A DNA stretch of 63,530 bases, counting the filler. It is 5 parts of 5 records of this genome, joined end to end, with 100 filler letters (N's around TTAATTAATTAA, not from the genome) between each part and the next. Parts side by side here need not be neighbours in the genome. Positions count along the whole stretch, not along the records: positions 15,669 to 31,535 come from SRR20825019_2473; 4 more parts are not named here. One strand, given 5' to 3'. The first letter of the stretch is position 1; the number at the start of each line of letters is the position of its first letter. The notes under the pieces were generated by a model that was given only the letters and a program-made list of their open reading frames with translations, ran no database searches and was not told the DNA's origin. This document shows positions 3,515 through 31,635 of this stretch, piece after piece. The translations under genes were made by a program, and so were the position numbers.

Positions 3515-3525
3515 GTTTTTCCTCC

Positions 3526-4293: not shown

Positions 4294-4321
4294 CGATCTG
4301 TCCTCCCTTGTTTCATCCTGC

Positions 4322-7988: not shown

Positions 7989-7993
7989 GTCCT

Positions 7994-8527
7994 TCAGCCT
8001 CCGATCAGGGCGGTGAGAAACCGCCCGAAGGGCAGGTGAATGTCGAAGACGATCCGCACCAGCCAGTAAAGGGCCAGCGAGAACACCACCGGAAAGCCGA
8101 CGATCGAAAGCGGCCTGCGCGCGCCGCCGGCAACCATCAGCGCGGCGCCGAAAAGCGTGGTCGAGGCGATATAGCCAAACCGCGGAAACGCCAGAAGATA
8201 GAAAAACAGCGCCGCGACGACGCCGACAATGCGCCCCCATGGCAAGGCTTCATCAGGCCGGCCGCGTGCGGAAATCAGCCGCGTCGCGGGGCGGACGATA
8301 ACGGCGACCGCCAGAACCATCAGACCCACGCCCAGCCATGTCGGGTATTGCTTGGCATCGATGCCGCCCGACAGCGATGCGATGGGATTGTCCTCCATCG
8401 CCGCGATATCCAGAACCATCCAGAGGCCGAGAATGAAGGATCCTGCTCCGACGACGATGGCGGCAAGGTCTTGCGACCGGGTTGCCGTTTCCCGTTGCGG
8501 AGCCTGAAAGGTTTCGTCGTTGGACAT
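7994..8527 (-). CDS. tctB: Tripartite tricarboxylate transporter, small subunit
   Basis: 177 aa, 4-5 TM helices, YP, FGY and LPFG motifs, located between tctC and tctA. Confidence 0.85.
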   Translation of the reverse strand: MSNDETFQAPQRETATRSQDLAAIVVGAGSFILGLWMVLDIAAMEDNPIASLSGGIDAKQYPTWLGVGLMVLAVAVIVRPATRLISARGRPDEALPWGRIVGVVAALFFYLLAFPRFGYIASTTLFGAALMVAGGARRPLSIVGFPVVFSLALYWLVRIVFDIHLPFGRFLTALIGG

Positions 8528-8593
8528 CGGGAGAACCTCAGGTCTGAAAGGAAAACGCGCCGCCGGCCAATGTTATGGAGCGGCGCGAAACGC

Positions 8594-9574
8594 TCAATTT
8601 TTCTTCAGGTTTTCCAGTGCCGGCGCCAGCCGGTCGAGCGAAACCTGCCAGAGATCCTGAAACGCATCCGGCTCCATGTACTGGACGGTGAACCCGCCTT
8701 CGAACATCTTCTTCTTGAAGGGCTCGGAATTGATGACCTCGCGGAACACATCCTGAAGCTTCTTCAAGCGTTCCGGATCCGTGCCCTCGGGCGCGACCAG
8801 CCCCGACCAGCCGGCGGTCGCAGCACCCCAGTCAAGGTCGTAGCCCTGTTCCTTTGCCGTCGGAATTCCGGGTTCGATCGGTGAGCGCTCTTCGGTGAAG
8901 ATCGCGAGCGTCTTGATCTTGTCGCCGTAGATCTTCACCGCGCCGAGCGCGCCGGTCGTGAAGTCGAGAGAGCCGTCGAACAGGCCCTGAATATTCGAGG
9001 TCTCGCAACCATCCGCCGGGATCGGCTGATATCTGGTGATCTCGGCCACTTCGAGGAACCGCCGCATCACCACATGCGGAAGGCTGACCGCCGGGCAGAC
9101 GCCAACTCTCAGGACACCGTCCTGGGCTTTTGCCCATTCAACGAATTCATCAACGTTGTTTGCGGGGTGATCGGCGGCCACCGTCAAGGTGAAGGGGTTC
9201 ACCCACATCAGCCCGATCGGGTCGAAGCCCATCGGATCGAAGCCGATTCGCGGCTCGAACGTCGGCACCATGATCTGGGTGGCAACCCACGAATTGCCGA
9301 TCGTGTAGCCATCGGGATCGGCCTCGGAAAGCGCAAGCATCGCCTTGGCGCCGCCGCCGCCGGCGATGTTCTGCACCGCGATCGGCTGCCCCAGTTTCTG
9401 GGCAGCGAACTCGGCAACGATGCGCGCGGTGATATCCCCCGACGTACCGGCCTCCCAGGGCTCGATCATCGTGATCGGGCGCGTCGGAAAGCCCTGTGCC
9501 ATGGCTGCGCCGGCGAAAGCGGCGAACGAAAGCGCGACGCCCGCAACGCGGGCCAGTGATTTGGAAATCATCAT
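8594..9574 (-). CDS. tctC: Tripartite tricarboxylate transporter substrate-binding protein (TctC/Bug family)
   Basis: Signal peptide, FPTRPITMIEPW, NIAGGGG, PDGYTI, PTAKEQG, GLVAPEGT; GGAGGAG RBS. Confidence 0.9.
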   Translation of the reverse strand: MMISKSLARVAGVALSFAAFAGAAMAQGFPTRPITMIEPWEAGTSGDITARIVAEFAAQKLGQPIAVQNIAGGGGAKAMLALSEADPDGYTIGNSWVATQIMVPTFEPRIGFDPMGFDPIGLMWVNPFTLTVAADHPANNVDEFVEWAKAQDGVLRVGVCPAVSLPHVVMRRFLEVAEITRYQPIPADGCETSNIQGLFDGSLDFTTGALGAVKIYGDKIKTLAIFTEERSPIEPGIPTAKEQGYDLDWGAATAGWSGLVAPEGTDPERLKKLQDVFREVINSEPFKKKMFEGGFTVQYMEPDAFQDLWQVSLDRLAPALENLKKN

Positions 9575-9669
9575 TTCTCCTCCCTTGGATTTGACAAAGG
9601 CTAAAGAGAGGTCTTCATTAATGCAAATAATTAACAACGCATTCGTCATGCATTTTGGTAATCGAAAAC

Positions 9670-10569
9670 ATGAACCTGCAAAACCTGCGCTACCTTCTTT
9701 CCATAGCCGAAACCGGGTCGATGACCCGTTCGGCAGAGCAGTTGAACATGACCCAGCCGGCACTGAGCCGCGGGCTTGCCGCGCTCGAGGACGAACTGGG
9801 AGCCCAATTATTTGTGAGACTTCCGAAGGCCATGCGGCTCAACGTATTCGGGCGCGTCATGGTGCGCAGGGCGCAAGGTATTTTCCGGCAACTGGAAGAT
9901 GCCCAGCACGAAATCCGGCACCTGCAGGAACATGAGGAGACGGAGCTTTCCGTGGGTTCTGGCCCGATCTGGCTGACCGGTCTGCTGCCGCGCGCGATCA
10001 ACCTGACCACGCGGGATTTGCCCGGCGTCTCGATCAGCGTGATCGGCGGTTTCGAGCGCCAGCTTGCCGAACTGGTCCGGCGCGGACAGGTCGCCTTCAT
10101 CCTCACCGAGCTAACCGACGACCCGGAATTTTCCGATCTCCATTCGGAGCCGCTCGCTTCCGCGCGATACGCCGTGGTCGCGCGCCGGGGGCACCCGCTG
10201 GAGCGGGCGGGAACGCTGGAGCTTCCGGAGCTGCTCGGGTTTCCATGGGTCATGCCCGACAAGGCCGTCAACGCCCAGAAGCGGCTCGACGGGCTGTTTC
10301 AAACCGAGGGCCTGAGCCCGCCCGTCGCCCGAATTCGCTCAACCTCCAACGGTTTCATCACCACCTATCTGGAACAGTCCGACGCCCTCACCTTCGCCGT
10401 CACGCCAATCCTGCGGGGCCATTCCAGCTTAACCGAACTGCCGCTGTCCCGGGCGCTGCCCAAACGGACCACAGGCATCCAGCGCCTGCGCGACGACTGG
10501 CTCAGCCCGGCCGCCGAGAAAATGCTCGATCATTTGCGGAACCTGACGCGACAGGAGGATGAATTCTAG
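9670..10569 (+). CDS. LysR-family transcriptional regulator, divergent from tctC
   Basis: HTH GSMTRSAEQLNMTQPALSRGLAALEDELGAQLFVR; 299 aa. Confidence 0.93.
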   Translation: MNLQNLRYLLSIAETGSMTRSAEQLNMTQPALSRGLAALEDELGAQLFVRLPKAMRLNVFGRVMVRRAQGIFRQLEDAQHEIRHLQEHEETELSVGSGPIWLTGLLPRAINLTTRDLPGVSISVIGGFERQLAELVRRGQVAFILTELTDDPEFSDLHSEPLASARYAVVARRGHPLERAGTLELPELLGFPWVMPDKAVNAQKRLDGLFQTEGLSPPVARIRSTSNGFITTYLEQSDALTFAVTPILRGHSSLTELPLSRALPKRTTGIQRLRDDWLSPAAEKMLDHLRNLTRQEDEF

Positions 10570-10721
10570 CGCATCGGCGACGCTCAAAACGCTCCACAGG
10601 AGGCAATCGCTCCCTTCGCGATCGGGATCGCGGTGTTTCATCTGCTTTCGGTCTGATCACGCAATACCCGGCGGTACAGGAAGGTCCGTTTCGCATCCCA
10701 TGGGGAATCCAACCCAACTGT

Positions 10722-11015
10722 TCAGACTTTGGCGAACGTAAAGTATTTGTGCAAAAAACAGCTCGTGACGGTGGGACTCAAGACGCCGACGACATGAGCG
10801 ACCGTTTCGGCGTACGACACGAAGCCGAAGTGTGGAAACACATAATCTGCAAGACCGACACTGATAAGCCATATCTGCGCAAGAGCCACCATATTGACAA
10901 GGCCGAACCGGATATACTCCCGGCTGACATGCCTGCCGGAACTCTCGAATGCGAACATGCGCATCAACACATAGGCAGTCGTCATGCCGATGCGGTTGAC
11001 GAACAGGGCGACTGG
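10722..11015 (-). pseudogene. GtrA-family membrane protein remnant, N-terminus missing
   Basis: IGMTTAYVLMRMFAF...RFGLVN...HKYFTF is the C-terminal part of GtrA-type proteins; in-frame stop shortly upstream and no first TM helix. Confidence 0.6.
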
Positions 11016-11193
11016 GCATGGCCAAACAGCGGGTGCAATTCAGTCAGCATAGTGTATGTTCCGCTGCGTCGTCACCGGCTGGACTGGTCGCGGATGACGA
11101 CGAAACATGGATTTACCAGTGTCTCGAATTTCACAATGATTGCGGTCGATTTTTCCGGAAAGTCGATTAATCACAAGCAATTAAAGAGAAAAA

Positions 11194-12315
11194 ATGGCGA
11201 AAACGGCTTTGATAACCGGCATTACCGGTCAGGATGGTTCCTATCTGACGGAATTCCTTCTGGAAAAGGGCTATGAGGTTCACGGCATCAAGCGCCGCGC
11301 TTCGTCGTTCAACACGCAGCGCATTGATCACCTCTACGAGGATCCCCAGGCCTCCAATGCGCAGCTTAAATTGCACTATGGCGACCTGTCGGACACCTCG
11401 AACCTGACCCGCATCATCCGCGATACCGAGCCGGACGAGGTCTATAACCTCGGCGCGCAATCGCATGTCGCGGTCTCCTTCGAGGCGCCGGAATATACCG
11501 CCGATGTCGACGCGATCGGCACGCTGCGCCTGCTGGAGGCAATCCGCTTTCTCGGACTGGAGAACAAGACGCGGTTCTACCAGGCGTCCACGTCGGAGCT
11601 TTACGGCCTCGTGCAGGAAACCCCGCAGCGCGAGACGACGCCGTTTTATCCGCGTTCGCCCTATGCCGCCGCCAAGCTCTACGCCTACTGGATCACGGTC
11701 AACTATCGCGAGGCCTACGGCATGTATGCCTGCAACGGTATCCTGTTCAACCATGAGAGCCCGCGCCGCGGCGAAACCTTCGTGACCCGCAAGATCACGC
11801 GCGGCCTTGCCAACATCGCGCTCGGCCTCGAGCCCTGCCTTTATATGGGCAATATCAGCTCTCTGCGCGACTGGGGCCATGCCAAGGATTATATCAGGAT
11901 GCAGTGGATGATGCTGCAGCAGGAAAGCCCGGAGGACTACGTGATCGCCACCGGTAAGCAGTATTCCGTGCGCGACTTCATCACCTGGGCGGCATCCGAT
12001 CTCGGCATCACACTCGCCTTTTCGGGCTCCGGCGTCGAAGAAGTCGGCACGGTGGAAGCCGTGATCGGCGATCTGGCGCCCAATGTGAAACCGGGCGATG
12101 TAATCGTGAAGATCGATCCGCGTTACTTCCGCCCCGCCGAAGTCGACACGCTGCTCGGCGATCCGACCAAGGCGAAAGAAAAGCTCGGCTGGGTGCCGGA
12201 GATCAGCGCGCGCGACATGTGCCGGGAAATGGTGGTCGAGGATCACAAGGCCGCGCGGCGCCATGCGCTGCTGAAGGCGCACGGCCTCGACCTACCGGTA
12301 AGCCTCGAAGGCTGA
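11194..12315 (+). CDS. gmd: GDP-mannose 4,6-dehydratase
   Basis: [55 protein letters not shown]. Confidence 0.98.
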
Positions 12316-12453
12316 ACGCGCGTCCCGGAACATCACGCGATCAATCGGTATCGCCCGATGTTATGGATTTTTTGTTTTGGCGCGTCGGGTTGACGACAAA
12401 CCGGATTCCACCCTTTCGCCCGACGCCCCAATTTCGAAACGGAAGAGAGTTTC

Positions 12454-13407
12454 ATGGCCTTCGATATCGCGGGAAAGACAGTCTGGGTTGCCGGCCATCG
12501 CGGCATGGTGGGTTCCGCCATTGTCCGCCGTCTGGAGCGCGAAAACTGCGAGGTGATCACCGCCGGGCGCGACACGGTCGACCTGAAGCGGCAAGCCGAG
12601 GTCGAGGCCTTTGTCCGCGACGCCAAACCCGATGCGGTGGTGATGGCAGCGGCAAAAGTCGGCGGGATTCTCGCCAACGACACCTATCCGGCTGATTTTC
12701 TCTACGACAACCTTATGATCGAGGCGAACATTTTCGAGGCCGCTCATCAGAGCGGCGTCGACCGTTTCCTGTTCCTCGGCTCATCCTGCATCTACCCGAA
12801 ACTGGCCGAGCAGCCGATCCGCGAGAGCGCGCTTCTGACCGGTCCGCTGGAGCCGACCAATGAATGGTATGCGATCGCCAAGATTGCCGGCATCAAGCTC
12901 GCCCAGGCCTATCGCAAGCAGTTCGGTCATGACTACATCTCGGCGATGCCGACAAATCTCTATGGCCCGGGCGACAACTACGACCTGAATTCGAGCCATG
13001 TGATGCCGGCGCTGATCCGCAAGGCCCATGAGGCCAAGGCTTCCGGCGCGAAGGAAGTGGTGGTGTGGGGCACCGGCACGCCGCTGCGCGAGTTCCTCCA
13101 TGCCGATGATTGCGCCGATGCGCTGGTCTTCCTATTGAAGAATTACTCCGGCGACGAGCACGTCAATGTCGGCTCCGGCACGGATATCTCGATCCTGGAC
13201 CTCACAAAGCTGGTCTGCAAGGTGGTCGGCTTCGAGGGCGAAATCGTCCATGACCTGTCAAAGCCGGACGGCACTCCACGCAAGCTGATGAGCGCCGACA
13301 CGCTCAGCGCCATGGGCTGGACGCCGAAGATCGACCTCGAAGACGGTATCCGCGATGCTTATGACGCCTTTCTCGCGGGGGATTTTTCCGCGCGCGCGCT
13401 CGGATAG
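12454..13407 (+). CDS. fcl: GDP-L-fucose synthase
   Basis: VAGHRGMVGSA, AAAKVGGI, LGSSCIYPK, LEPTNEWYAIAK, MPTNLYGP, KPDGTPRK. Confidence 0.97.
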   Translation: MAFDIAGKTVWVAGHRGMVGSAIVRRLERENCEVITAGRDTVDLKRQAEVEAFVRDAKPDAVVMAAAKVGGILANDTYPADFLYDNLMIEANIFEAAHQSGVDRFLFLGSSCIYPKLAEQPIRESALLTGPLEPTNEWYAIAKIAGIKLAQAYRKQFGHDYISAMPTNLYGPGDNYDLNSSHVMPALIRKAHEAKASGAKEVVVWGTGTPLREFLHADDCADALVFLLKNYSGDEHVNVGSGTDISILDLTKLVCKVVGFEGEIVHDLSKPDGTPRKLMSADTLSAMGWTPKIDLEDGIRDAYDAFLAGDFSARALG

Positions 13408-13449
13408 GAAACGCCGCCCGCCAGTGCAATGCGCTCCCTGTGTTCGCAC

Positions 13450-15231
13450 TCACATCGGGAAAAAGAGGCTGATGGCGAAAACGGACGTGAAGCCGACGAT
13501 GATATTCATCGGAATGCCCATCTTGAGGAAATCGCTGAACCGGTAATTGCCGGCTCCATAAACGAGCGTATTCGTCTGGTAGCCGATCGGCGTCGCGAAG
13601 CTTGCGCTGGCGGAAAACATGACGGCGACGACAAAGGGGCGCGGATCAAGACCGAGTTGGTTGGCGAGCGTTATCACGATCGGCGTGTAGACCACCGCAA
13701 CAGCGTTGTTGGTGACGGTTTCCGTCAGAATCGATCCGACGAAATAGACGGCCAGCAGCATGAGCACGGGCGAAAGGTTTTCCAACCACGGCTTCAGCAT
13801 ATTGACGACCAGTTCGACGGCGCCGCTGTTCTCCAGCCCGGAACCGACGATCAGCATGGCGAAAATCAGAACCAGAATCGATCCGTCGATGGTCCGCCAT
13901 GCCTCGTCACTGTCGATGCAGCGAAGCGCGAGAATAACCGCGACGCCCAGAAGCGCAAGGATGCCGATGGGCATGACGTTGAAAGCGGCAAGCGTGACGA
14001 TGCCGACCAGGGTCAGGACAGCGATCGGGGCCTGGCGTCGCCGATAGGCGCGGCCGCCAGGTTCGGTGACAGACACGACATCGCCGACCCTCGAAAGATC
14101 GCTGAACCCTTCGGCGGTGCCTTCGAGAAGCAGCTTGTCGGCCGGACGCAACTGAACATTGGGCAAGTCCGGCCCGGCCACATGACTGGCGCGGTAGGCG
14201 CCGAGGACGCGCATGCCGAGGCGCCTTCCAAGCGCCAGATCCGCGATCCTGGCGCCGGAGCTTCTGCGTGACGGGGATACAATGACCTCGGCCACGCGCA
14301 ATTCGGCATCAGGTTCCAGAACGAACGATCGCCGCAAGCCGACCTGCAACTCCGATTGCTCTTCAAAGGTCAGGAGTTCGGAGGTCGGCGCAATGATTAT
14401 CACCGCATCTCCCTGCTGGAGGACGTATTCGGGCAATCCGCTTCTTTCGATCGTGGTCCCGCGCCTGATGCCTGTGACGCGGATACCGGAGCGCTGAAAA
14501 TCGTTGACGTCGGAAAGCGCTTTGCCGATGCCGGCATAGTCGGACAGAATGGTGATCTCGGACAGAAAGGGGGTCTCTTCATTGTCGACGTTCTGGTCGG
14601 AATCCCGGTGCGGCAGCAGGAATTTTCCGAGCACGAAAACCGAGACGCCGCCCACCACCGCCGAAATGATGCCGACCGGCGCGATCTCGAAAATGGAAAA
14701 CGGTTCGAGACCGTTCTGCTGCGCGACCCCGGCCACCAGAAGATTGGTAGACGTACCGATCAATGTGCAGGTCCCGCCGAGAATTGCCGTGTAGGAAAGC
14801 GGTATCAGCAAACGGGTGGGCGCCATGCTCAGGCTGGCCGCAAGGCGCACCACGACCGGAATAAGCACGAGAACAACCGGCGTGCTGTTCATGAAAGCGG
14901 ACGCCGATGCCGCGACGACGATGAAGATCGCTATCGCAAGGACCGGACGGGATTTGGCCTTTTCCACGATGAAGCCGGCGAGTGCATCCAGCACCCCCGT
15001 CCGCAGCAGAGCGCCGGAAACCACGAACATAGCGCCGATCGTGATTGGCGCGGAGCTGGAAAATACCGCCATCACATCATCCGTAGGCACAAGTCCCAGG
15101 ACAATGAACAGCGCAGCACCGATAACCGCAGTAATGTCCGGTGGATATTTTTCGATGGTGAAGGCGACGAAGAGAAGCGCGAGAAGCACCAGTGCCACGA
15201 TCGCTGGAGAAACGCCGACGAACTCGATCAT
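13450..15231 (-). CDS. SLC13/CitMHS-family permease with central TrkA-C domains
   Basis: SAFMNSTPVV, GGTCTLIGTSTNL, TETVTNNA, FATPIGYQTN, GNYRFSDF. Confidence 0.9.
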   Translation of the reverse strand: MIEFVGVSPAIVALVLLALLFVAFTIEKYPPDITAVIGAALFIVLGLVPTDDVMAVFSSSAPITIGAMFVVSGALLRTGVLDALAGFIVEKAKSRPVLAIAIFIVVAASASAFMNSTPVVLVLIPVVVRLAASLSMAPTRLLIPLSYTAILGGTCTLIGTSTNLLVAGVAQQNGLEPFSIFEIAPVGIISAVVGGVSVFVLGKFLLPHRDSDQNVDNEETPFLSEITILSDYAGIGKALSDVNDFQRSGIRVTGIRRGTTIERSGLPEYVLQQGDAVIIIAPTSELLTFEEQSELQVGLRRSFVLEPDAELRVAEVIVSPSRRSSGARIADLALGRRLGMRVLGAYRASHVAGPDLPNVQLRPADKLLLEGTAEGFSDLSRVGDVVSVTEPGGRAYRRRQAPIAVLTLVGIVTLAAFNVMPIGILALLGVAVILALRCIDSDEAWRTIDGSILVLIFAMLIVGSGLENSGAVELVVNMLKPWLENLSPVLMLLAVYFVGSILTETVTNNAVAVVYTPIVITLANQLGLDPRPFVVAVMFSASASFATPIGYQTNTLVYGAGNYRFSDFLKMGIPMNIIVGFTSVFAISLFFPM

Positions 15232-15520
15232 GATTTTCCGTTCTGCTGTCCGGCATGAGCGCAAATGCCGATATTCATGTCATCGTCTCCCAGGTTACGA
15301 CGAACTCAGAAGCGAGCAAACCACCCGATGCGCTTTCCGTGGCGCATTTTGCGGTTGCCTGCCGGCATGCTGCATACGCGCGTCACAGGATCGTGGCCCG
15401 ACGGGGTAGCATGGCTTCTGTACGGGTTGGGACTGCGTGACATCTCGCAAAATAAAGTCACAAAAACGCTCGCAGGAAAAGTGATAACGTCCTGCAGCCC
15501 AATGATTTAATTGAGGAAAA

Positions 15521-15568
15521 TGGTGGGTGATGTAGGGTTCGAACCTACGACCCGCTGATTAAGAGTCA
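15521..15568 (-). tRNA. tRNA-Lys(CTT), 3' part, cut by the contig end
   Basis: Reverse complement TGACTCTTAATCAGCGGGTCGTAGGTTCGAACCCTACATCACCCACCA: anticodon CTT, GGTTCGA T-loop, CCA end. Confidence 0.92.
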
Positions 15569-15668
15569 NNNNNNNNNNNNNNNNNNNNNNNNNNNNNNNN
15601 NNNNNNNNNNNNTTAATTAATTAANNNNNNNNNNNNNNNNNNNNNNNNNNNNNNNNNNNNNNNNNNNN
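15569..15668. other. Artificial contig spacer
   Basis: N44-TTAATTAATTAA-N44 (stops in all six frames). Confidence 0.98.
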
Positions 15669-16711
15669 AAGGGGGAAGGTATCGTACCGATTTTCACCCG
15701 CCGCCGTGGCGGGGGCGCGGCCGGGCGGGCCGGCCGGGGCCGGCGGCGGCCGCCGCCGCGCCCGCCTCGGCGCCGCGCGGCCGCGCCGGCCCGCGCCGGC
15801 GCGCAGCCGTCCCCGGGCAGCCGTGGCGGAAGGCTTCGCCGGTCCCGCCCCCGCAGGAGGAGGGCGGCTGGGTGCCCGGCCTGGGCCACTGGCATGCACC
15901 ACGGGAGGCTCTACCCGGCTGCTCAAGTGGGCCAGCCACACGGCCACGGTGACCGGGCTGTCTTATCTGCCGGTAGGAGTCCGACCGCCTTTCTCAACGC
16001 GAACTGCCGCCGTTCGGGCCGGCCGGTGTCACTGGCACCATTGGCACTCCCAGTCTCACTGACTGCCTTACTAAGCGCCGCACTACTGAGCCTTGTTGTA
16101 GGGGGGCGGAGGAGGTCTGGTCAGTACCGGTCCCGCGAACGACTCCGAACCAATACATCATTGACACCGGTTATGGGTTCGACTTCGCGTTGTCCCGACT
16201 GATCGTTGAACCAACCAACCGGCCCGCGAGCGGCGCCGCCCGGGGCCCGGCCGCGCGTCTGGGGCCGCCCCCGACTGCCAGTCAACCCGGAACGGCCCTG
16301 GAACGACACTGACACTTGAGGCATGCCACTCCGAACGGCGGTGTCGGCAGACTCACCAGGGCTCGCTTGAGCCGGCCCGACCGGGCCCGACCACGGCAGA
16401 GCAACGCGGACCCGACAGGTGACCAGACGCCCGCGGGCAGTTTCGAACCAACAAATTGCTGACCGGACCGCTGCCCCACTCGTCACACGGCCACATGAGA
16501 TCTCTACTGGAGGGAGTCAGCACTATGTGCGGGTGGCGGCGATGGGTAAAAGCTGCCAGCTGACTGGGAGCGACGCGACAGGCCCAAAGGCAATGTGGCG
16601 GCAAGTGGGCCATCCTCCTCCCTCGACGCACACTGCGCAACCCTTCTTCCGCTCCATATAAACCAGGAATGGACGGAGAGAAACTATGTTACGCTTAACT
16701 CCGCTCAATTC

Positions 16712-18040
16712 ATGGCTCACAAGGCCATACGCAGACTGAGAACGGTCTCATCCTCCACAGAGAAAAGACTAAATGACTGTGGTATCCGCACCCTAAAGGT
16801 TTGGGCGTACCTTGGCGTTGTCGAGTGAGCACTGACAGTGCGTTGTGCAGGACCTGTTACGCTACAACGAGTTCGAACTCCTTGGGATGGTGAATCTTCC
16901 TCCGGAGGAGTTATCGTGGTGTGTCAAGGCGGCTTCCAAAGTAGCTGCCCCAAAGCCAAGAACCGTATGGCCGCCTACCCACCCCCACGCGGACACTATG
17001 CTGACGCCCCTCTAGGCCCTTGAGTTATCGAAGCAGAGTCAACCCACCGTGTCAACAAGGATCGCGGAGCTAGACAGAGCGCTGCATGGAGGTATCCCAA
17101 GCGGGTCGATCACCGAGGTCGTGGGACCAGCAGGGGCAGGGAAAACCCAGTTCTGCATGACACTCACCTGCAACTCGGTTCTGGACTCTGAAGATGGGTC
17201 GGCCATCTATATTGACACAGAGGGCTCTTTCAGTCCACAGCGGTGCTTGCAGATGTTGACAGCAATGGTGGAGAGGGCGGACGGATCTGCCAATGACGAC
17301 CGTATCATTAAGAAGATGGCCGCAGTGCACTATTATCGCGTGGAGTCTTCGGAGGAGCTGGTGCGAAAGCTGGAGAATCTGGAGAGCGTAATCATTGACA
17401 ACAACGTGAGGCTGCTGGTGGTAGACTCAGTAGCCACACACGTGCGCCGGGAGTTTGATAGGTCAATGTTGTTGAGGAGACAGGTGTGTTGGTACATGTT
17501 TGCCAAGTGCAGCTCGGCGCTGACGTGATAAATTTGATAGGAGTTGTTGACATCGGTGGCGTCCAACCTCAAGTATCTCACGGAGACGTTTCAAATCCCA
17601 TGCGTAGTCACCAACCAGGTCACGTCTGCAGGATTCGGGGAGGGAGGTAAGGTCCATGTTTATAAATATTGTACAGGGTGCCTTAATCAAGTCACCCAGC
17701 CGAAGGATTTGTCACTGCTGCCTTGGGTAATACTTGGTCCCACTGTGTCAACAATCGCATCGCCTTGGAATGCAGATCCATATGTCGCCTGGCCACATTG
17801 GCAAAGAGCCCTATCGCCCAAGTGTGCTCGTACCGATACAAGATCACGAATGCCGGTGTGGAGGAAGATCTTCAGGGTGGGACAGCCATCGTCGAGCAGG
17901 AGCACAACTTCTGGTCCAGTCGGCTCCGAGAACACATCGAAGCAGTCGAAGAGGAGGAGGCCGCAGGGAATGCAAATGACGAGGACCGATGCAACGACAT
18001 CATTCCAGCTATGGGCAGCCAGTTGGTCGTACCCAACTAG
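16712..18040 (+). CDS. RAD51B: DNA repair recombinase paralog RAD51B, 5 exons, ~371 aa
   Basis: GT-AG introns 16799-16850, 16965-17015, 17484-17540, 17647-17699 join one frame; LDRALHGG, Walker A GPAGAGKT, Walker B LLVVDS, VVTNQV, AALGNTWSHCVN, AKSP. Confidence 0.85.
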
Positions 18041-18054
18041 GTGCAGCGTCGTCG

Positions 18055-20856
18055 TCAAATGTACCCATCGGATGCTCCGGGCGGCGGTGCAGGTGTGGCA
18101 TAGGTGTCCACTTGTTTGTTGTCCTCCTTCACAAGTAGCTTCACCCCGTGTCTCATCTTCCTCCTGAACTCTTCCTGGCCCATCTTGGATGCCTTCTCGC
18201 CATCTACCCCGCAGGTCTCTAACATTCGTTTCCACGAAGGCCCTTGGTCGATGCTTTTGTTTTGACCGCGTTCCGTCGATCTCATCAAGTGTTCGCACGG
18301 GTCTTGTGGGTTGTGGACATGGGCCAGCGAGATCATTCGGTAGGTTCCACTGCTAAGTGAAAACCCTTGCTTCGTCCAAAATCCGTACTCTGTATGTGTG
18401 CTATTGAGAAGGGCATCTCCACTTTGGTTTTCAGTAGGGGCGGATGGACACTCGTCTGGGGAGGCGTTGTCGGCGCTGACAGGTGCAATCGAAAGGCCCG
18501 ACGCAACGTCCACAGCGACTCTAAGAATTCCTTCCGGTGGCTTTTGTCCGTCAATAACTTGGAAAGGCGAGCCATCAGCAGTTCGGAATTGCGCTTGTGG
18601 TATCGCAAACAGGAACGCTCGTGCGGGTTCGTTCCGTTCGGAAGGCACCCATTTCATGTCGATCCAGAGGGCCCCCCTTTCTGACGCCGACTTGGCCAGC
18701 CTCCGCATCATTGCATGCTCCACCCCTCGGTGAAGCACTCTGCAGCTCATAAGAAAGTGAGCCACTACCATGGCATCCGCACCATGTGAAGTCTGCGGTT
18801 CTGTGACTAGGAGGCCTACATGACCATAGTGTCCGAATCGATCAGTAACTGACACCGTAAATATTTCGCCTCCACCTTCTTGGATGGCGCGTAGCTCACT
18901 CTCAGAGTAAACGTGCTTGTTAGAATTGAATTGATTCGTCCTCTGGGTCAACTGCGCCGACCTAGCCAGTGTAGAATGGTTCATCGGCGAAATATCGATG
19001 CATAGGTTGATGCTTGCCAAAAAGGCATCGAAAGAAGCAGATCCATCCAACATCCGCTGTCTCTCTGCGTTGGCTTTGTACATTTCGGTCCTTGTTAAGT
19101 CCTCCTTGGTCGGTGCATGTTTGCCCAGTTCCCTATCAAATACCCAGTGGCTTTCCAGAAAACGCCCGAACACGATTGGTTGTTCTGGGAGCTGAATGAC
19201 TGTTACCATGGGCAACACACCTGCCACCTCAGCACACTCGACAGGATTATCATCAATGAAAACGAAAGAATCCAGCCCTAAATTCAGCTCTTTCGACATC
19301 GCCTTGATGCTCTTGGATTTCTGGTCCCAATTAATGCGATAGGTTACTATATGCCTCATCTTCAAAACCATGTCCCCGACCCTCTCCTCAAATACATTCA
19401 ATACATCGCTTTAGAGCACATCAGCACATTGCAGGAGAAACGTTTACACACATCATACCGTTCAATATTGCGAGATGAAAGGCAAACCAGCATCCCGAGA
19501 TCAACCTGTGCTGCGAGAAACCTTTGTAGATCCGTAAATCCTCTACTGATGTCTATTCCTTGAACTCCGAGCTCGCCCACTGCACCTTTCCAGAGAGTGT
19601 TATCACAATCCACCACGATAACCTTCTTAGGATTAGGTCGAACGCGGTGGGCCATTCGCAGCGTGAACAGCGCCATGCTTGCCAAAAATTTCGATGTGTA
19701 CGGGCTGTGTGCCATTCGATTGGCCTTCTCGTCATGAATGCTATGCAAGGTGCGCCCCGACAATAAACTGCAGGATGGGATGGGATACACATTCGTCATC
19801 CCAGACAGTTGGGAACACAACTGCGATTCAAAGTGAGAATGAAGCCTCTTCACAAGGCTACAATCCGCAAATATTGGAGATGGTGGGCAGACCACGACGA
19901 TGTGAGGGCTTGACGCAAATGACGAGGCCGCGGCCGCGGCGTGTACTACACGATTGAGTGCATCAAGCATAATGTTATGATCGAATTTGGCTGCAAGTAC
20001 AGGATTTTTCAGGATCCACAAAGCGGGAGTCACATCTGAACTTACCAATACCATCCATTCCAGGCGAGTACATGACCTCAGGGTGAGGGTATATAAGATC
20101 TTCTAACCGGATGAAACTGAATGAGCAGTCACCCTTCCCGCCCGGAGTCGTGTTCTCCAATGAGCCTAACACCGCACCATAAGGCTGCCATACAGCCACA
20201 CATGGCATGCCCATCAGGGTGCAGAGCTTGTCAAAGGGGCCCTGCATGTCCTCCGCAAAGGAGCACGATATGTGTATTTCGATATCCGCTAAGGATTCTG
20301 AAGAACCGCCAGGCTGCAAAGACTTCGGCTCAAACAAGGTAGACACCCTTGACATCAAAATTTCATTTCTATTTTCGAGTTCGACGAAACTGCAGCATTC
20401 CTCAAACCTGTAGCCGCGAACTGCTTCGAGGGGCTCCGCCTTCGCGAAACCAACTTGTGGCTCCACACTTTCGAGCCACTTTTCAGAAGCCTTTTTCCGA
20501 GCTGAAAGAGCTTCTGCCACCGCCTCTTTCTCCAGGCTCGATGCACTTGGAGTGGGCACCGGTGCAGGGGCACGAACTATTCCAGTTGCCCGAAACACGC
20601 GACCAGCATGCGTACTGGCCACATCAACGTTCTCATTCAAATGAAAATAAACCCAGTCGCCCTTGTTGATACTACTAGGGCAGAACTGCACCTCACCTGC
20701 TTCGAAGCGTATGTTCTGTCCCCCATTCTTTGCAACTATTGTTGTATCACAAGGCGAAATAAAGCCCCAACCTTTCTTGGAAACCCATTTTTGGACCTTG
20801 CCCAACTCGGAACCAGCGCCCCCTTCATCACTTGAACCGTCTTTAGACCTGTCCAT
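18055..20856 (-). CDS. FkbH-family HAD-IIIC/GNAT-like protein with N-terminal cold-shock-like domain, 3 exons, ~898 aa
   Basis: Introns 20045-19991 and 19458-19409 fuse three ORFs; KVIVVDCDNTLWKG, RINWDQKS, FIDDNPVEC, QRTNQFN, DRFGHYG, FLMSCRVLHRGVE; N-terminal GKVQKW..KKGWGFI. Confidence 0.85.
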
Positions 20857-21872
20857 CAGAGCAGCTCATCATAGTGTGCACTTCTATGAGAAAGAGTGCT
20901 TGCAGTCATATCTGAACTGCGAGATGCGTTTTCCCTCCTGAGGGTGACGACCCTGATAACCACGTCCAAGGCACGTGTCCGCGCACATGAAAAAAGTAAC
21001 TCGCTTCGCGGATACGCTAACCGGCATAGGAGTGTGCTGGCTCCCGTTGTCGGTTCAAACAGCCTCCCTCTGGCTCTGGCATGGGGGCCCGCCGGGCCCG
21101 CTGACTCAGGCGCCCCGTCGGCGCCACATCAAGTGAGCCGGAGAGGTTGCCCGGCGGGGACCCCGGCAGCGTGCGGGGGTCGCACCGGGCGGGCCACGGC
21201 GACAGCCACGGCTTGCCGCCCCCGCCCCCTCCCCCAGCCTAGGCCATGTCGTGGCCGCTCCCCGCGCCCGTGTCCCTCCCGTCCCGCGGCCGGGGCGGCC
21301 CTGGGGCGGGCGGGCCCTAGCCATCATAGTTATATTTTTAGACTCACTTTGCCCACGCCCCAGGCGTTAAAATCTCCCAGGAGTCGAGATTGCTCTGGGG
21401 CTCATCGCCGTCAGATTTCGCTTGATTTCATTCATGATTCATTCAAGTTCGGGGGTCCGCGCCCGCGGCCGCACTCACCGGCAGCCGGCTACCGTACCCC
21501 GCTGACCCACCACACGCCGGCTCCCCGTCGTGGCGACACACTCAGTGATGAGAGTCCGATTGTAGCCCACCGATTGTCAGGTCGTAAGGCAGGCCGGGGT
21601 CGCGGGCGCGGCGCGGGCGACGCGCACCTCCATCCTCTCCGGCCCGAGGTGGAGTCCGGCCTGACCATCAAAGAGCCTTTCACTCGGGCCAATCACCTAT
21701 GTCGCCCCATCTATCGCCGTGGCTTCATTCAAGCACGCAGGTATGCTGGAAAGCCAGTGAGGTAGCTTTGATTCGCACGGCCGGAAACTTACACACCCTT
21801 GTCAGAATTTCAGGATATGAATATGAACTTTGGACTACATGCTAGAATAAAACAACTGCAACTTTCGCAGTC

Positions 21873-24800
21873 ATGTCTGTTAGATTTGCTTCCACCAGCA
21901 ATCGGGAGCTGGAGGAAAAGATGTAAGATCTTCTTCCAGTATCTTAGCGCAGCTTGTTCGTTAACACATTTGCAGAAAGCTCACGAAGGAGGAGGTTTAT
22001 TTGTATAAAATAGGAGAGGTCAGCGGAGATCCCGATTCTTTCGAAAGGAAAGAGACGGACTTAGAGATAATGGAAGAAGAGCACCAACGCAGGGTGGCTG
22101 AGGGTATTGATATTGAAACAGAAAAGTCTTCCAGTAACAGCGGGAGTAGCAGCAGTGGAAGTTCATCAAGCAGCTCTGATTCATCGTCAGATGATGACTC
22201 GACTAGCTCTGGTGAGGAGAACGAAGAGCGTGGTGAAAAGCAAGAACAGACTGAAGAGGAGCGGGTACCTGGGGAGCACGATCAGGTGCGCGAGGGAAAT
22301 AGTCCTGACCTCAATAGTGGGGCGTCCAGCGTCCACAATAGCCCATCGAGATCTTCGAATCCTCCTGTTGAGGGCACTTTGGAGCTTGTGGAAAGGCCAA
22401 CAACATCGAAGTCTCTTGGGGTTACTTTCGCGGGTGCCGAGACTGTCACGTATGAGTTGAGGTCGGAGGAAGTATCGCCTAGGGAGGAGCAGGAATACGT
22501 GCACAATCCACTGACAAAAGAAGCGCTCGCGGCAAGGGCAATGTCCCCTGGCAATCAATTGTCGAGGGCTTCGTATGAACTTGGCAGACCCGAGACCCCA
22601 GAAAGCGAGTGGACTGCATCCATCATTGAACCTATTCGCCGGCGTGTTTCCACTACCTTCACCGAGGCCAACATCCCAGAGGAGGGAATAGACTTGGAAG
22701 AGACAGCCGAGTTCCAATATGACGGGAACGATGATCTATCGCGCCAAAGAGGACCTTTCTCCCCTCCCCGCAAGGGTAGAGGTATTGACGGGTCATTTTG
22801 GACTGGAGACGATAGAACCGAAACCCCGGAGAGTCAGTGGACTGCGTCGGAACTAGATGGGCCAGCGGTGGGACCGTCTCGTGCCCATTTGAGGAGCGCT
22901 GGAGCTGACAGCTCTACTTTCAATGATGGACTCCCGGATGTCGAGGCAGCCTCACCTATCCCGTCCCACCATGAAACCGTATCCAGTGTGGGCCCACAGG
23001 TGATTCCAATCGCGCCAAGAAAAGGACGTGGAATAGACGGATCATTTTGGACGGGAGATGACAGGACAGAAACCCCTGAGAGTCAGTGGACTCCGTCTGA
23101 GCTTGACAATTATTCGAAAAGCGGCTCGAGGATCAATACCAGCAATACTGGAGCTGTGTCGGGTCAGCTTCCTGATGCCGCGGCGAAGAACGCTAGCTTT
23201 GAAGTAGATTTTGGAGACCTCTTCCAAGCCAATGTTCAATCAGCACAAGAGCCCACCAAATCCCAACAATCGGATCCTGATGGAATAGTTGGTGCTCGCG
23301 CCGAAGACGAAGACGAGGAATTATCACCACGTTCGCGGCAAATGAGACAATCTCTAGTAGTTATTCGAAGGTCTTCAGAAGCTGTACTAACAAAGGAAAA
23401 CGAAGAAACTTGGAAGGAGATCCATGGCGATCCCGGGGAGGAGGAGGAGGAAGACACACCGTATCCGTTAAGTATTCAGCCCGTTAAGGAACGCAAAATA
23501 GTCCCAGAAGTTCCAGTTGCGGATTTTTCTTCTCTTGATAATCCCACCGATCGATCGGATGTCGCGACTGAGCCAGTGAATCATGTCAACGTAGATCCTC
23601 AAGTACTGTATGATCATGTAATCGAAGTTGAAGACAAAAGTGGAAGAGAGTATCTGGAAATTCAAAGGGCGAAGGAGCAAAAGAAGATGGAGGAGAAGCT
23701 GCATGTGTTGCAAGACTTGAAGGGGAAAGGGGTGAAGATAGACGAACTCGGTGCTGAGGAAGAAATCCTTGTCGAGACATTGGGAGAATCGAAGGAAGAA
23801 GTGACAATGATAAGAACCGAAGGAGATCTTGATGAATGGGTAGATGCTACTGTAGATGAAGGTCACGACAATTCTAAAGAGCAAGATGAGATCCAATCCA
23901 CTGCAGGAAATGAAATTGAAGGAGAGGGAGATGGCGAGGGAGCAACTGCTAATAGCGAGGAAACAGATCGTAATGCTGAAGAGCTAAGGTTCCTCTTCAA
24001 GCAGTCCGTGAAAAAAGTTGCACTCATGAATGTGTTCCGTGGAGGTCGAAAGGACAAGAAAGGAAATGAAATAGAGAGCGCAACCGGGCCACGTCTCTTG
24101 AGACCCACATCATACAAGAAATCAAGCATGGATTTGGCTAAAGAGGTCGCAGAAGAAGCTAAGAAGCCTCGCCTCAGGGGACGTCTAGGATCTCTATTCT
24201 ATCTCAATGAAGGAAAGTACAACGTTTCAGGGAAAATCGAAGAAGAAAAGGAAGACAGCAGTGATGATGATGATAACGAATATGAGAAGTACGTAAGGAC
24301 TGTACGGCGCAGGAGTCAGGCATCTGTTATTCGGGAAAGTAAGTGAGGTGGCACGAAACGTTGTATCATATATCTGACAGTCAGTATAGAAATGATGCAG
24401 GAGACATCCCAGCTTCTATCTCAGGAGAAAGAGAAACTGGACATAGTGCAGAACAATACTATTAGTGTTCAGATCAAGGCTGATAGGGAGAGGGATAAGA
24501 AATTGGGGGGTTACATTGACACCGAAATTAACGGGGCAACTGCTGATCGACCGAATACTGTGTACAAGGCAGGGATTTCAGACGAAAATTTTGCAAAAAC
24601 TGCAAAAGAGCGCGATGTGAAAAGAAGAAAACAAAGGAGAAAGGAGAAGGCTGAGCTTCGAAGGGAGAGGAGGAGACGGAAGCAAGAAATCCTCTCCTAT
24701 TCTCCAGAAGATGTTCCGCCATGGTTGCCACTAAGAATTGAGGAACTTGAAAATATGAGCGATGACTCCGATGTTTCTTCTGATGTTGAAATTGATCCTG

Positions 24801-27679
24801 ATGACCCAATCAGAGATGTACATATGGAATCGCTTCCATGGGGCGAAAGGGCGTCCTCCACCCTTTGGGATGCACTTTCCAAAGTAATAACCCAAACCAA
24901 AGCGAAGGTTGATGTTCAACAGATGTTCCTCCATGAATTCGGAGAAGATGAAATTGCTGAAATATATTATCATATCATTGAAGCGAAGTGGGAAAAGGAC
25001 AGGAAAAATGCAATGAATGAAGACTTGGAGAAGACATCTTCCAAGAAAATGAACAGACTCGACAAACTGTTGAAGAAGTCGAAGAAAACATCGCAGGCCA
25101 CAATGAAAAGCACAAACAGCTTTTCGAAGAAAGGAAGCATGCTGATGTCAAAAGCTTCAGTGGCATCGATGACCTCTGATATTGATGATGATTTTGTGGA
25201 GGACACCGTTGATCAGAGAAGGATTAAGATGGTGCACGCTGTACTTCAAACCATGCGTATGATGTATCACAACCGGGCAGGAACGAAAAATAAGAGTTGG
25301 AACTTCAGGGTATTAAAGCCAGGCGAGCTTGCTGCCCACAATACTGCAGCTATCAAAGTACAGGTATGGCATGAACAAAGCGTGAATATTGCAGTATATT
25401 AACTCCTCAAAATTTCCTCTTAGCGAATATATCGGGGCCACATCGTCAGATTGAAGTATAAGAAAATCTTGGCTTTTGACAAGGAAACATCATACTGGAA
25501 AGCTGCTCGAACGATTCAGAGAGTGATCATGGGGCATTGGGGCCGTCGATATGTTAGGTTGGTGCACAACTTCTACATGTCGAGGACGTATGAGATTGCG
25601 GCAATCATTATTCAGAATGCCTATCGGACACACTCGTCTATCAGGTTCTACAAGTACTGGCTAATGGACATCAAGTTCGAAAGGCTGTACAGTGCTATTG
25701 CAGTGTTGAAGAAAAGGCATCGAGTACGGCGATTTGTAAAGCGCCAGAAACTACGGGAGATTGATGAGGAATGGGAGAAGTTAGAGGAACTGGCTACGGT
25801 CATCCAAGCTGGCTACCGAATGCACATGCAAAGAAGAAGGTACAAGCAGCTGTTAGCAATTAGAGAAAGAGAGTGGCATGAAAATACTCTAAGGAGGAGA
25901 GTGGAACATTGGAGGATTACCTGGTTCCAGAGGAGATATCGTGCTCTCATCCAGTATCGACGGAATGCGCGCGAGGAAGCACGACTTGTCATGAAGAGGG
26001 AGAGGGGAGATGCGGTAAATGCGATATGGCGAAAATATCGTAACTACAGGCAAAGGTGCATTCTGTTGAACCTGAAACACGAGATGCGTGTACAGGCAGC
26101 TCGAAAGATACAGAGTTGCTACAGGAATCATCTTGGTTTGAAGAAGAGAAAAATCTTCATTCGATATTGTGAAGGTATCCGATTTACGAGGGCATGCAAG
26201 GTGCTGTACACTGTGGTCAGAAGTCATATTCTCCGAAAATCGTTCCGCAACATTCTCACGATTAGGAAGAATATTGCCATTACTCAGGTCCAGAAGGTGT
26301 GGAGGGGCCATTTCATTCGTATGTCGTTGAAAAAGAGAATGGCTAGAAGGGAAATGCGGTTTTATCGACGTAGGGCAAATGCCATCAAGGCCCTTTTCAT
26401 GTATTTCATAGCACTACGACGGGAATTGAGGCCGCAAAAACCAAGTCTGCTGAAGACTTGGGGTGTATCGATGTACACTGGTACCAGAATGAAGTATGCA
26501 GCAGAAATATCTCTCGACAACATGGACACCCCGCGCGCACAAGCCCGCCAAAAGGTTGAGAAGGATACCCCCATAAGGAATGTCGGGTACCTCACTGGGC
26601 AGCGGCGATCACAGCGTACCCTGTCACACGGCAAAACAAGGATCGACGTGCCCCCTGGCAAGTTTAAGTTGGGCGTGATCCAAAAGTATCATAATTCAAA
26701 TGAAACCCGCAAGCCCGCGAAGATGACATCGCACCTAATGGTAAGCTCGTCACAAGCATCTCCACCACTAGTCCAGCCCGAAAACACATCGTGGTTTGTT
26801 GGGGAGCCAAAGATCCCTGCAAGCTTAGTTGACATCAATGATATTCGTGTCAAGAAAAAGAAGGATGAAGACGCACTGCTTCTTCAATGGTCAAAGAAGC
26901 AGTTTGAGGAGGAGCGGAAACGCCTATATCGATACAAAATCAAGGCCGCCCAGTCGATCCGACCAAAGCTACGCGATGAAACGAGCATTCAAGTATCCGT
27001 TCTTAGCACTGCGCTTCCACAATGGGAGGACATATATGCAAAGCCCAGGATTGGAGGTCCCGTGGAAGGCTCAGGGCAAAAGGTCACATCATCAGAGTCA
27101 GGATTTCAAAATCTTGTCCTTCCGGCAAAAGTTGAAAGCGAAATTCAAGAGCTTGTGTCCAATGATCTTGACATCACACACGAACTGAAGCCCACGTTCC
27201 TTAGGAAGACGGCAGTTTCCATAGCCGATGAAAAAGAGCGTATCAAGTACATCGAAAATAGGTTCCAGCACCGCCACAAACGCCTTATGAAGAAACGCCA
27301 CAAGAAGGTGTCACAAACCATGCAATCCATGACTGAAGATTCAGTCCTGAAAGGAAACTCCCTCTTCGATCAAATTCAGCCTGATCACTCCCGCCGCTCC
27401 AAGGAGCACTATAACAGAAGGGAGACGAACTACGTCTACGACATGTCACAAATGGCACCTCGACCAATCCTTCAAGGTGTGTCCCAGGCAGTCATCGACA
27501 GGTCGTGGTCTGGACCTATTGGCGGACATATGGAAGATATCGTCAAGAAACCATATAGCAACGCCTCTGTTACTGCCTATGATGGCAGGGTCTCGATAAC
27601 ACCTGATGGCCCCAAACCAATTCGGCCAAAGCACATTGAGTCTCCTCAGGGAGGAGGCACCTATCCAAGCTTGGCTTAG
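21873..27679 (+). CDS. Large protein (~1880 aa) with acidic low-complexity N-half and multiple IQ calmodulin-binding motifs, 4 exons
   Basis: Introns 21923-21975, 24339-24389, 25364-25423 join the ORFs in frame; VQRIYRGH, IQRVIMGH, IQNAYR, IQAGYR, IQSCYR, VQKVWRGH. Confidence 0.8.
22766..23107 (+). repeat. Two copies of a 31-codon intragenic repeat (22766-22858, 23015-23107)
   Basis: PRKGRGIDGSFWTGDDRTETPESQWT[A/P]SELD twice, 30/31 aa identical. Confidence 0.95.
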
Positions 27680-31535: not shown

Positions 31536-31635
31536 NNNNNNNNNNNNNNNNNNNNNNNNNNNNNNNNNNNNNNNNNNNNTTAATTAATTAANNNNNNNNN
31601 NNNNNNNNNNNNNNNNNNNNNNNNNNNNNNNNNNN
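31536..31635. other. Artificial contig spacer
   Basis: N44-TTAATTAATTAA-N44. Confidence 0.98.

Follow-up and report, generated by a model that had tools for sequence, protein, structure and literature searches.

An expressed, intron-bearing eukaryotic gene for an FkbH-family enzyme with a cold-shock-like fold and no fused carrier protein

Our analyses of a window of 63,530 nucleotides (nt), the whole stretch of DNA under study, show that its minus strand carries, at positions 18055 to 20856, an expressed nuclear eukaryotic gene for a member of the FkbH family. The encoded protein of 898 amino acids (aa) is composed of four parts: an oligonucleotide/oligosaccharide-binding (OB) fold, a linker of ~95 aa, an FkbH module and an extension of ~150 aa. 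By the family model NCBIfam TIGR01686, the FkbH module is complete, with its HAD-phosphatase and Cys motifs intact, and sequence comparisons place it in an eukaryote-only FkbH clade present in several microbial eukaryotes. We tentatively regard the protein as a glyceryl-S-Cys enzyme that would pass glycerate to a separately encoded carrier protein.

The gene is spliced and contains three exons, whose joined coding sequence of 2697 nt translates into 898 aa without any internal stop. From the ATG start codon read at 20856-20854, exon 1 (20046..20856, minus strand, as all parts of this gene) encodes residues 1-270 and the first base of codon 271, exon 2 (19459..19990) encodes residues 271-448 with a split codon at both ends, and exon 3 (18058..19408) encodes residues 448-898, followed by the TGA stop codon read at 18055..18057. 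Intron 1 (19991..20045; 55 nt, GTAAGT..TTGCAG) is in phase 1, and intron 2 (19409..19458; 50 nt, GTATGA..TAAAG) is in phase 2 and lies within the HAD domain. These coordinates agree with a preliminary description made from the sequence alone, which had joined three open reading frames (ORFs) through introns of 55 and 50 nt into one frame of ~898 aa. Its junctions also hold in two public sequencing runs, X1 and X2, which come from one sample of one study with no library type on record. Their contigs were compared with positions 17000-22000, a region of which the runs contain 71-80% of the sampled words. The contigs of both runs omit exactly 19409-19458 and 19991-20045, segments whose plus-strand ends read CT..AC (GT..AG for the gene), and a single contig of 3136 nt spans 20881-17658 with both introns gone. 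The same runs also lose two GT..AG introns of a neighboring Rad51-family gene on the plus strand (17482-17538 and 17645-17697). The contig ends at 20881 and 17190 bear identical adaptor-like loose letters, which we take to be similar to a template-switching oligonucleotide. Because of the removed introns and the adaptor-like ends, we treat both runs as complementary DNA (cDNA). Both splice junctions, and a single transcript joining the cold-shock-like and FkbH parts, are supported in this one sample, and the introns together with the cDNA-like contigs uphold the eukaryotic status that had been proposed for the gene.

The same contigs delimit the untranslated regions (UTRs). The 5′ UTR occupies 20857..20881, the cDNA contig ending at 20881 with the adaptor-like letters, and the 3′ UTR covers at least 397 nt (17658..18054), contig 2 of X1 being unbroken from 19408 to 17658. 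The 3′ UTR overlaps the final exons of the Rad51-family gene in antisense orientation, and one unstranded contig (X2 record 3, 17016-18979) merges both transcripts. At the other end, an upstream ORF of 9 codons (20843-20872, minus strand, from ATG at 20872 to TAA at 20843) begins with two adjacent ATGs about 9 nt from the mapped cDNA 5′ end and overlaps the main start codon out of frame. Contigs and window differ at 10 single bases, 8 of them in the coding sequence, where 5 are synonymous and 3 are replacements (K126N, G231A, N831D); within residues 391-745 there are 0 replacements against 4 synonymous differences, counts too small for a formal test.

The assignment of the protein to the FkbH family, already made in the preliminary description, is confirmed by profile matches and by intact motifs. 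The family model NCBIfam TIGR01686 matches exon 3 alone with 210.6 bits (cut-off 146.65; profile positions 62-317 of 323) and exon 2 with 43.1 bits (profile 3-56); since the match resumes across intron 2 from position 56 to 62, the second splice restores a continuous match. TIGR01681 yields 32.4 and 24.6 bits on two exon pieces, each under the cut-off of 35.75 because the intron splits the domain, and no Pfam model matches the FkbH part. This part begins with the FkbH-family N-terminal domain (19632..20289; residues ~190-390, split by intron 1), which was delimited by alignment, is colinear with the first ~200 aa of the bacterial homologues and includes the clade motif RLEDLIYPHPEV. It continues with the core recognized by TIGR01686 and TIGR01681 (18517..19631; residues ~391-745, split by intron 2), namely the HAD-IIIC phosphatase and the C-terminal Cys-bearing domain. 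Colinearity with 60 bacterial proteins extends from residue ~190 to ~745, DRFGHYG included, and DCDNT, SRN, the Lys of INWDQK, DDNP, RTNQFN and SCRVLHRGVEH fall on columns that are invariant in these 60 bacterial rows. The HAD motif I, DCDNT (19596..19610; residues 398-402), contains the presumed nucleophile Asp398; FIDDNP (498-503) is the acidic DD motif, likewise on invariant bacterial columns. Other motifs start at residues 19 (GKVQKW), 28 (KGWGFI), 443 (SRNIERDVLNVFEER) and 666 (FLMSCR). The latter contains Cys670, whose codon (18742..18744) lies in FLMSCRVLHRGVEH and which aligns with the invariant Cys of bacterial SCRVLGRGVEH; it matches the Cys of LLLSCRVLGRGVEH in the 60 bacterial rows and in all full-length members of the eukaryotic clade. 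In OzmB and Tmn16 this Cys is reportedly the acyl-enzyme site. Word-based searches retrieved 2397 longer and 4636 similar-length relatives with a top identity of 51%; among the 120 best longer matches, 114 contain PF00550 and PF00975 and are bacterial FkbH-carrier-thioesterase proteins of ~990 aa. Exon 3 matched only bacterial HAD-IIIC-like clusters in the ESM Atlas.

The N-terminal part is modeled as a cold-shock fold. That the first ~95 aa resemble a cold-shock OB fold had been suggested from motifs, and the suggestion now finds support in sequence matches, in an AlphaFold2 (AF2) model and in Foldseek comparisons, which place the fold at 20572..20808 (residues 17-95). Residues 1-190 gave 8 phmmer matches at E<=1e-3 among 1.84 billion representatives: six are proteins with several cold-shock domains (CSDs), with 4-6 PF00313 stretches each (PF00313 112-197 bits; phmmer E 2.5e-6 to 9e-4), one is a protein of the same layout (P0243, described below) and one is a 205-aa fragment (P0245). 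AF2, run on a nine-row alignment, produced five strands (17-25, 30-35, 49-52, 68-75 and 88-95) with a predicted local distance difference test score (pLDDT) of 82.8. Foldseek compared this model with the PDB and found 25 matches at E<=1e-3, all but one of the listed ones titled as cold-shock proteins or domains, with target-normalised TM-scores of up to 0.86 to Csp structures. The sequence matches to CSD proteins are significant independently of the AF2 model. The NCBIfam CspC model scores 13 bits on the N-terminus (E 0.077), and CspC in the PDB sequence search has an E-value of 0.46. Among longer proteins, a word-based search with exon 1 gave 3654 candidates, 0 of them at E<=0.01, and missed P0243, which HMMER later found. 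Compared with true CSD repeats, the window protein, P0243 and P0245 carry 3 extra residues between strands 2 and 3 and 8 between strands 4 and 5, and have invariant residues of their own (W24, P35, N44, N48, H83 and R86). In cold-shock proteins, the ribonucleoprotein (RNP) motifs read K-G-F/Y-G-F-I (RNP1) and V-F-V-H-F (RNP2). The RNP1-like motif is KGWGFI in the window protein, LSCGFI in P0243 and RACGFI in P0245, so that the aromatic residue is kept in the window protein only. The RNP2 positions read N-I-R-F-E, N-Y-R-V-D and N-F-H-V-S, respectively, with the aromatic/His positions replaced in all three. From these sequences, canonical nucleic-acid binding by the cold-shock-like domain appears doubtful. 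The linker that follows (20290..20571; residues 96-189) contains a VRG[YF] motif common to P0243 and P0245.

At the other end of the protein, the C-terminal extension (18058..18516; residues 746-898) has no PP-binding or thioesterase domain. Its last ~60 aa form a conserved module (18058..18234; residues ~840-898), which had escaped the preliminary description and consists of a basic RRKxRHxVK segment, then PPPGxxDxYI and the stop. Two metagenomic sequences of the eukaryotic clade, L026 and L030, share this ending (..RRKxRHxVKxLV..PPPGxxDxYI, then stop), with BLASTP E-values of 1.4e-12 and 8e-14 for the tail alone, and the window tail scores 40.0 bits against a hidden Markov model (HMM) of these two tails, a value reached by 0/1000 shuffles (maximum 7.1). 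In the other subclade, Lys/Arg-rich ends are followed by W(R/K)xKN. From these comparisons, the clade has replaced carrier and thioesterase by a basic extension that is conserved. The lack of a carrier-protein domain, noted earlier by eye, was borne out by Pfam, by HMMs with shuffles and by hhalign, all negative on the tail. Pfam gave nothing at E<=10 on the last 201 aa. A decayed carrier had seemed conceivable in BLAST and MAFFT alignments that placed WKRML..GVD..G..RHGVKL at the start of the bacterial PP-binding region, with Glu at the Ser position. We rejected this candidate: an HMM built from 60 bacterial carrier regions gives the tail -1.5 bits, which 122/1000 shuffles reach, a linker HMM was equalled or beaten by 325/1000 shuffles, and hhalign gave a probability of 0.4% between seven eukaryotic tails and the bacterial carrier alignment. 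No thioesterase (PF00975) was found in the protein, which ends at residue 898, and its stop codon lies 14 nt from that of the Rad51-family gene, leaving no room for more exons.

The closest match in layout is P0243, a predicted protein of 640 aa from Ichthyophonus hoferi (Ihof_evm13s33; EukProt EP00124), with the same succession of CSD, linker and FkbH module. Across CSD, linker and N-domain it aligns colinearly with exon 1 (26% identity, E 2e-15), and over 202 aa of exon 3 the identity is 49%. It matches TIGR01686 with 199.3 bits; its gene model stops before the Cys motif. Nine metagenome loci contain the VTDRFGHYG pattern. Two are bacterial-type (L028 and L032), and the other seven (L024-L027 and L029-L031) represent six distinct sequences, L031 being a near-copy of L027, with uninterrupted FkbH ORFs. 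These seven share with the window protein and P0243 HPE[LVI] after R.ED, W.PYG, an insertion after FD and L[HQ]RGVE; the GHYG motif is also common to them, and the five tested with TIGR01686 score 193.9-230.3 bits. In four of the seven, the contig neighbors (ArfGap, EF-hand, TPR-GT41, and enolase with an N-terminal extension) are eukaryote-type or eukaryote-compatible, from which we infer that the seven contigs are eukaryotic. The GC content of the clade contigs ranges from 0.29 to 0.69. A metagenome scan with the N-terminal alignment gave 182 pattern matches, 0 of them confirmed. No CSD occurs in the six clade members with complete N-termini, the N-terminus of L026 being cut by the contig end; by sequence, the CSD is an addition in a subset of the clade, namely the window organism, I. 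hoferi and one further fragment.

Several members of this clade have features of their own. L024, L025, L027, L029 and L031, which make up a second eukaryote-type subclade, have no N-terminal extension and end in Lys/Arg-rich C-termini (e.g. RKRRRKQEK..WRLKNG) reminiscent of segments for nuclear localisation or nucleic-acid binding. L027 and L031 lie on contigs with a GC content of 0.29-0.31 and show Asn-rich insertions. L030 (77-2989) has a different N-terminal extension of ~230 aa without a cold-shock motif, in which ..EWAVRGLL.. is similar to VRG[YF] in the linkers of the window protein, P0243 and P0245. In L026, where the two ORFs lie at 1011-2537 and 2652-5039, the FkbH gene is found beside an enolase gene with an N-terminal extension of ~67 aa; a protein that would use a glycolytic intermediate thus has a glycolytic enzyme as its neighbor, in this single case.

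Phylogenetic analysis groups the eukaryote-type sequences together. A quick tree of 43 rows, with 11 eukaryote-type sequences and a random 32 bacterial matches, recovered them as one clade with a Shimodaira–Hasegawa-like approximate likelihood ratio test (SH-aLRT) support of 98, as did a more careful tree of 26 rows, from which L031 was dropped as a near-copy and whose 16 bacterial rows were chosen to span clades (support 99/97); the same clade was present in 100% of 200 bootstrap trees. An earlier tree, whose eukaryotic sequences were limited to the window protein and P0243, joined this pair at 99. The clade sits beside the sampled bacterial FkbH-carrier(-thioesterase) loaders. These trees are unrooted, with long branches and weak resolution inside the clade. 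As FkbH proteins are overwhelmingly from bacteria, an origin there is plausible. The earlier idea of a bacterial-derived enzyme domesticated in a protist keeps this plausible origin but no longer concerns a single protist, given I. hoferi and six further distinct clade sequences.

How could such an enzyme work? Since all catalytic motifs are intact, the same first half-reaction as in the bacterial family is what we would best expect. The substrate would be glycolytic 1,3-bisphosphoglycerate, as the family suggests; its 3-phosphate would be removed via the HAD Asp398, and glycerate would be kept as a thioester on Cys670. The glyceryl group would then pass to an acceptor encoded elsewhere, the likeliest being the phosphopantetheine arm of a separate carrier protein or domain. 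The basic tail could dock such an acidic carrier, and the OB fold would serve as an accessory module for targeting or regulation. The absence of a fused carrier is not unusual in this respect, since characterised stand-alone FkbH enzymes use separate acyl carrier proteins (ACPs), as the available part of PMC7489565 describes. We rank this transfer to a carrier in trans first, as our leading though still tentative reading, followed in order by a non-carrier acceptor, hydrolysis only, a dead enzyme and an artefact.

Several observations weigh against transfer in trans and against the picture on which it is built. The trans-carrier step follows family precedent, that of stand-alone bacterial FkbH enzymes, and no carrier, polyketide synthase (PKS) or nonribosomal peptide synthetase (NRPS) gene was found on the 15.9-kb contig of the gene, to which this negative applies. 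Neither a CSD nor a basic tail is expected in a carrier-loading enzyme. The KNEPA motif after the Cys domain, invariant in the carrier-linked bacterial proteins, varies in the clade (RNEPA, RNALA, RNSPS), which may point to an altered acceptor. As to the N-terminal fold, six of the nine rows of the AF2 alignment are true CSD proteins, which biases the model toward the CSD fold; the single-sequence AF2 model of exon 1 (pLDDT 34.5) is uninformative, and PF00313 is absent from the Pfam matches at E<=1. Regarding the clade, the window protein is 33-36% identical to its metagenomic members versus up to 51% to bacterial proteins, and treekit flags unequal amino-acid composition in several clade rows, so that the grouping depends in part on the indels, motifs and tail that its members share. 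P0243 groups with L026/L030 (92/70) in the careful tree and not with the window protein, which may reflect either one gain and a loss of the CSD or an unresolved tree.

The alternative that ranks next, which was the main idea of the preliminary description, we judge possible but rather unlikely: glyceryl-S-Cys would be formed, the acceptor would not be a carrier, and the CSD and basic tail would target RNA, an RNP protein or another molecule. The clade lacks carrier and thioesterase and keeps a Lys/Arg-rich C-terminal segment instead: three of its sequences have RRKxRHxVK, and five have RKRRRKQEK-type stretches. Three members have a CSD-type fold whose relatives bind single-stranded nucleic acid, and the RNP1-like KGWGFI is intact in the window protein. 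KNEPA varies in these same sequences while remaining invariant in carrier-linked bacterial proteins. Against this, the RNP2 aromatic/His positions read R/F/E, R/V/D and H/V/S in the window protein, P0243 and P0245, and Cys replaces the RNP1 aromatic in the latter two, so the canonical face is not conserved in the trio, and the six clade members with complete N-termini have no CSD at all. The available parts of PMC7489565 and PMC8949500 describe carrier acceptors only. That the eukaryotic FkbH clade as a whole glycerylates non-carrier targets (RNA, an RNA-bound protein or another nucleophile), steered by the basic module and, in one lineage, by the cold-shock-like domain, is in our view improbable. 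We know of no FkbH enzyme that acylates anything except a carrier thiol.

A further possibility is that no macromolecular acceptor exists: the glyceryl-enzyme would be hydrolysed, or the protein would act as a phosphatase only, in a regulated bypass from 1,3-bisphosphoglycerate to glycerate or 3-phosphoglycerate in which the extra domains would be regulatory. The closest bacterial layout does terminate in a thioesterase, the HAD motifs are all intact, and one clade member, L026, lies beside an enolase gene. The thioesterase itself is nevertheless absent here, and the Cys motif and the entire C-terminal domain, for which a plain phosphatase would have no need, are conserved across the clade; moreover, an ATP-yielding glycolytic step would be wasted. 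We consider such a bypass unlikely. A catalytically dead or repurposed pseudo-enzyme, serving as a metabolite sensor or scaffold, would fit the lack of an identifiable partner and the unusual added domains, which are all that speaks for it, and seems very unlikely given that every examined catalytic motif is kept in all full-length clade members and that residues 391-745 show no replacement beside their synonymous differences (very small numbers). Finally, the notion of an artefact, either a bacterial contaminant gene or a mis-joined assembly, draws on the mixed nature of the assembly (three of the five contigs are bacterial, and the TctA gene of one matches Martelella mediterranea with 98% protein and 94% DNA identity) and can be set aside with near certainty, refuted by the removal of two GT..AG introns in cDNA-like contigs and contradicted by the location of the gene, which occupies a separate contig flanked by spacers and converges on a spliced gene of the Rad51 family, and by an orthologue of the same layout in the I. 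hoferi protein set.

The surroundings of the gene have to be read with the make-up of the window in mind. Four artificial spacers (15569-15668, 31536-31635, 46734-46833 and 58076-58175), each consisting of 44 N, TTAATTAATTAA and 44 N, split it into five contigs, and adjacency across them is meaningless. The FkbH gene lies on its own contig (15669-31535, ~15.9 kb), bounded by spacers; because the window consists of separate contigs, statements about neighbors are limited to these 15.9 kb, and the finding itself is unaffected. On this contig, the convergent Rad51-family gene on the plus strand (PF08423, 76.6 bits) has its stop at 18040, and an ORF with an IQ motif lies at 25424-27676 (PF00612, 22.8 bits). 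The Rad51-family and IQ-motif neighbors named in the preliminary description are thus present, whereas its statement that no PKS or NRPS genes are nearby extends only as far as the contig. A 795-aa ORF on the same contig (28901-31285) encodes teneurin-type EGF repeats (PF23106 97.6 bits, PF25024 88.8 bits). Very GC-rich intergenic stretches occur on this contig and on that at 31636-46733 (15650-16550, 21000-21330 and 44400-45200), with a GC content of 0.63-0.77 in the two that were profiled, 21000-21330 being judged by reading, against ~0.50-0.55 in the coding parts. Three of the five contigs (1-15568, 46834-58075 and 58176-63530) are bacterial-type, with uninterrupted genes for sulfatases, TctA/TctC with a divergent LysR regulator, GDP-mannose dehydratase, CitMHS-TrkA_C, DAP epimerase, Ldh_2, an MR_MLE enzyme, TauE, biosynthetic arginine decarboxylase and an AraC regulator. 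Positions 4008-10570 of the first contig are 94% identical in DNA to Martelella mediterranea, with 98% protein identity for TctA, and the assembly is a mix of a eukaryote and at least one marine alphaproteobacterium. The end of this first, bacterial contig (15520-15568) resembles a tRNA gene truncated by the contig end to its 3′ half; ARAGORN detected no complete tRNA in the window, and Rfam and tRNA scans of the window gave 0 matches each.

The portions of the literature at hand present FkbH enzymes as tools of bacterial natural-product synthesis, whose role is to load glycerate onto carriers. Here we add an expressed, intron-bearing eukaryotic FkbH gene, a clade that appears to be restricted to eukaryotes and has one member in an ichthyosporean, a unicellular relative of animals, and two additions that are not known from any characterised FkbH, a predicted cold-shock-like fold and a conserved basic tail that stands in place of carrier and thioesterase. 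With a carrier in trans as the acceptor, the clade would mark polyketide or peptide chemistry of protists that is primed with glycerate and so far unexplored. Otherwise, we would be dealing with a novel type of acyl-transfer enzyme supplied directly from glycolysis, and should the acceptor be a macromolecule, with a new metabolism-coupled modification in unicellular eukaryotes, including a relative of animals. Either way, the protein is defined and testable, with one Cys, one Asp and two removable domains.

Our literature searches, which covered texts outside supplementary files, found no paper on a eukaryotic FkbH enzyme or a CSD-FkbH fusion, nor any on the three-domain FkbH-carrier-thioesterase form. 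The sole eukaryotic mention is that of an ‘fkbH-like protein’ gene, named in passing in the available part of a Cannabis association study (PMC7596533). Bacterial proteins of the three-domain form (e.g. P0001 and P0113, named ‘FkbH-like protein’ or ‘HAD-IIIC family phosphatase’) are up to 51% identical to the window protein and share its catalytic motifs, but they carry PP-binding (50-52 bits) and thioesterase (71-83 bits) domains, of which the window protein has neither, and they have no introns and no 190-aa CSD-plus-linker part. Stand-alone FkbH synthases, compared by description, share with it the family model, the presumed chemistry and the absence of a fused carrier. They lie in operons beside their own ACP, whereas the window gene has no such neighbor on its 15.9-kb contig, and they lack its CSD-like domain and basic tail. 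OzmB and Tmn16 are presumably further stand-alone FkbH-like glyceryl-ACP synthases. Examples documented in the available part of PMC7489565 are FkbH of FK520 and Mad7/Mad14 of tetromadurin. In NRPS or PKS-NRPS systems, by contrast, FkbH domains are embedded in megasynthases with the carrier in cis; some of our best matches belong to this NRPS type and contain condensation domains (e.g. P0029, P0051 and P0074). For vioprolide and cystomanamide, NRPS FkbH domains load and dephosphorylate 1,3-bisphosphoglycerate and place glycerate onto T domains, according to the part of PMC8949500 available.

No solved structure for the Cys-bearing domain or the tail was found by PDB sequence search. The one relative of known structure that sequence comparison returned, BF1531 of Bacteroides fragilis (PDB 3slr), aligns in its HAD-IIIC part (E 1.9e-12, residues 8-85 of the exon 3 query) and covers the end of the HAD domain only. 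With cold-shock proteins (CspA/CspB/CspC, YB-1, UNR and CRHSP-24; P0241, P0242, P0244 and P0246-P0248), the window protein would share a five-stranded barrel, and its KGWGFI resembles their RNP1. Its domain differs from theirs by its fusion to an enzyme, its insertions, its replaced RNP2 positions and the lack of a PF00313 match at E<=1. The I. hoferi protein P0243, known by a gene-model name and no functional name, differs by LSCGFI in place of KGWGFI and by a C-terminus missing from its model, which leaves Cys motif and tail incomparable; it has in common with the window protein RLEDL..PHPEL, DCDNT, DDNPVEC, TDRFGHYG, the VRG linker motif and the order of the parts.

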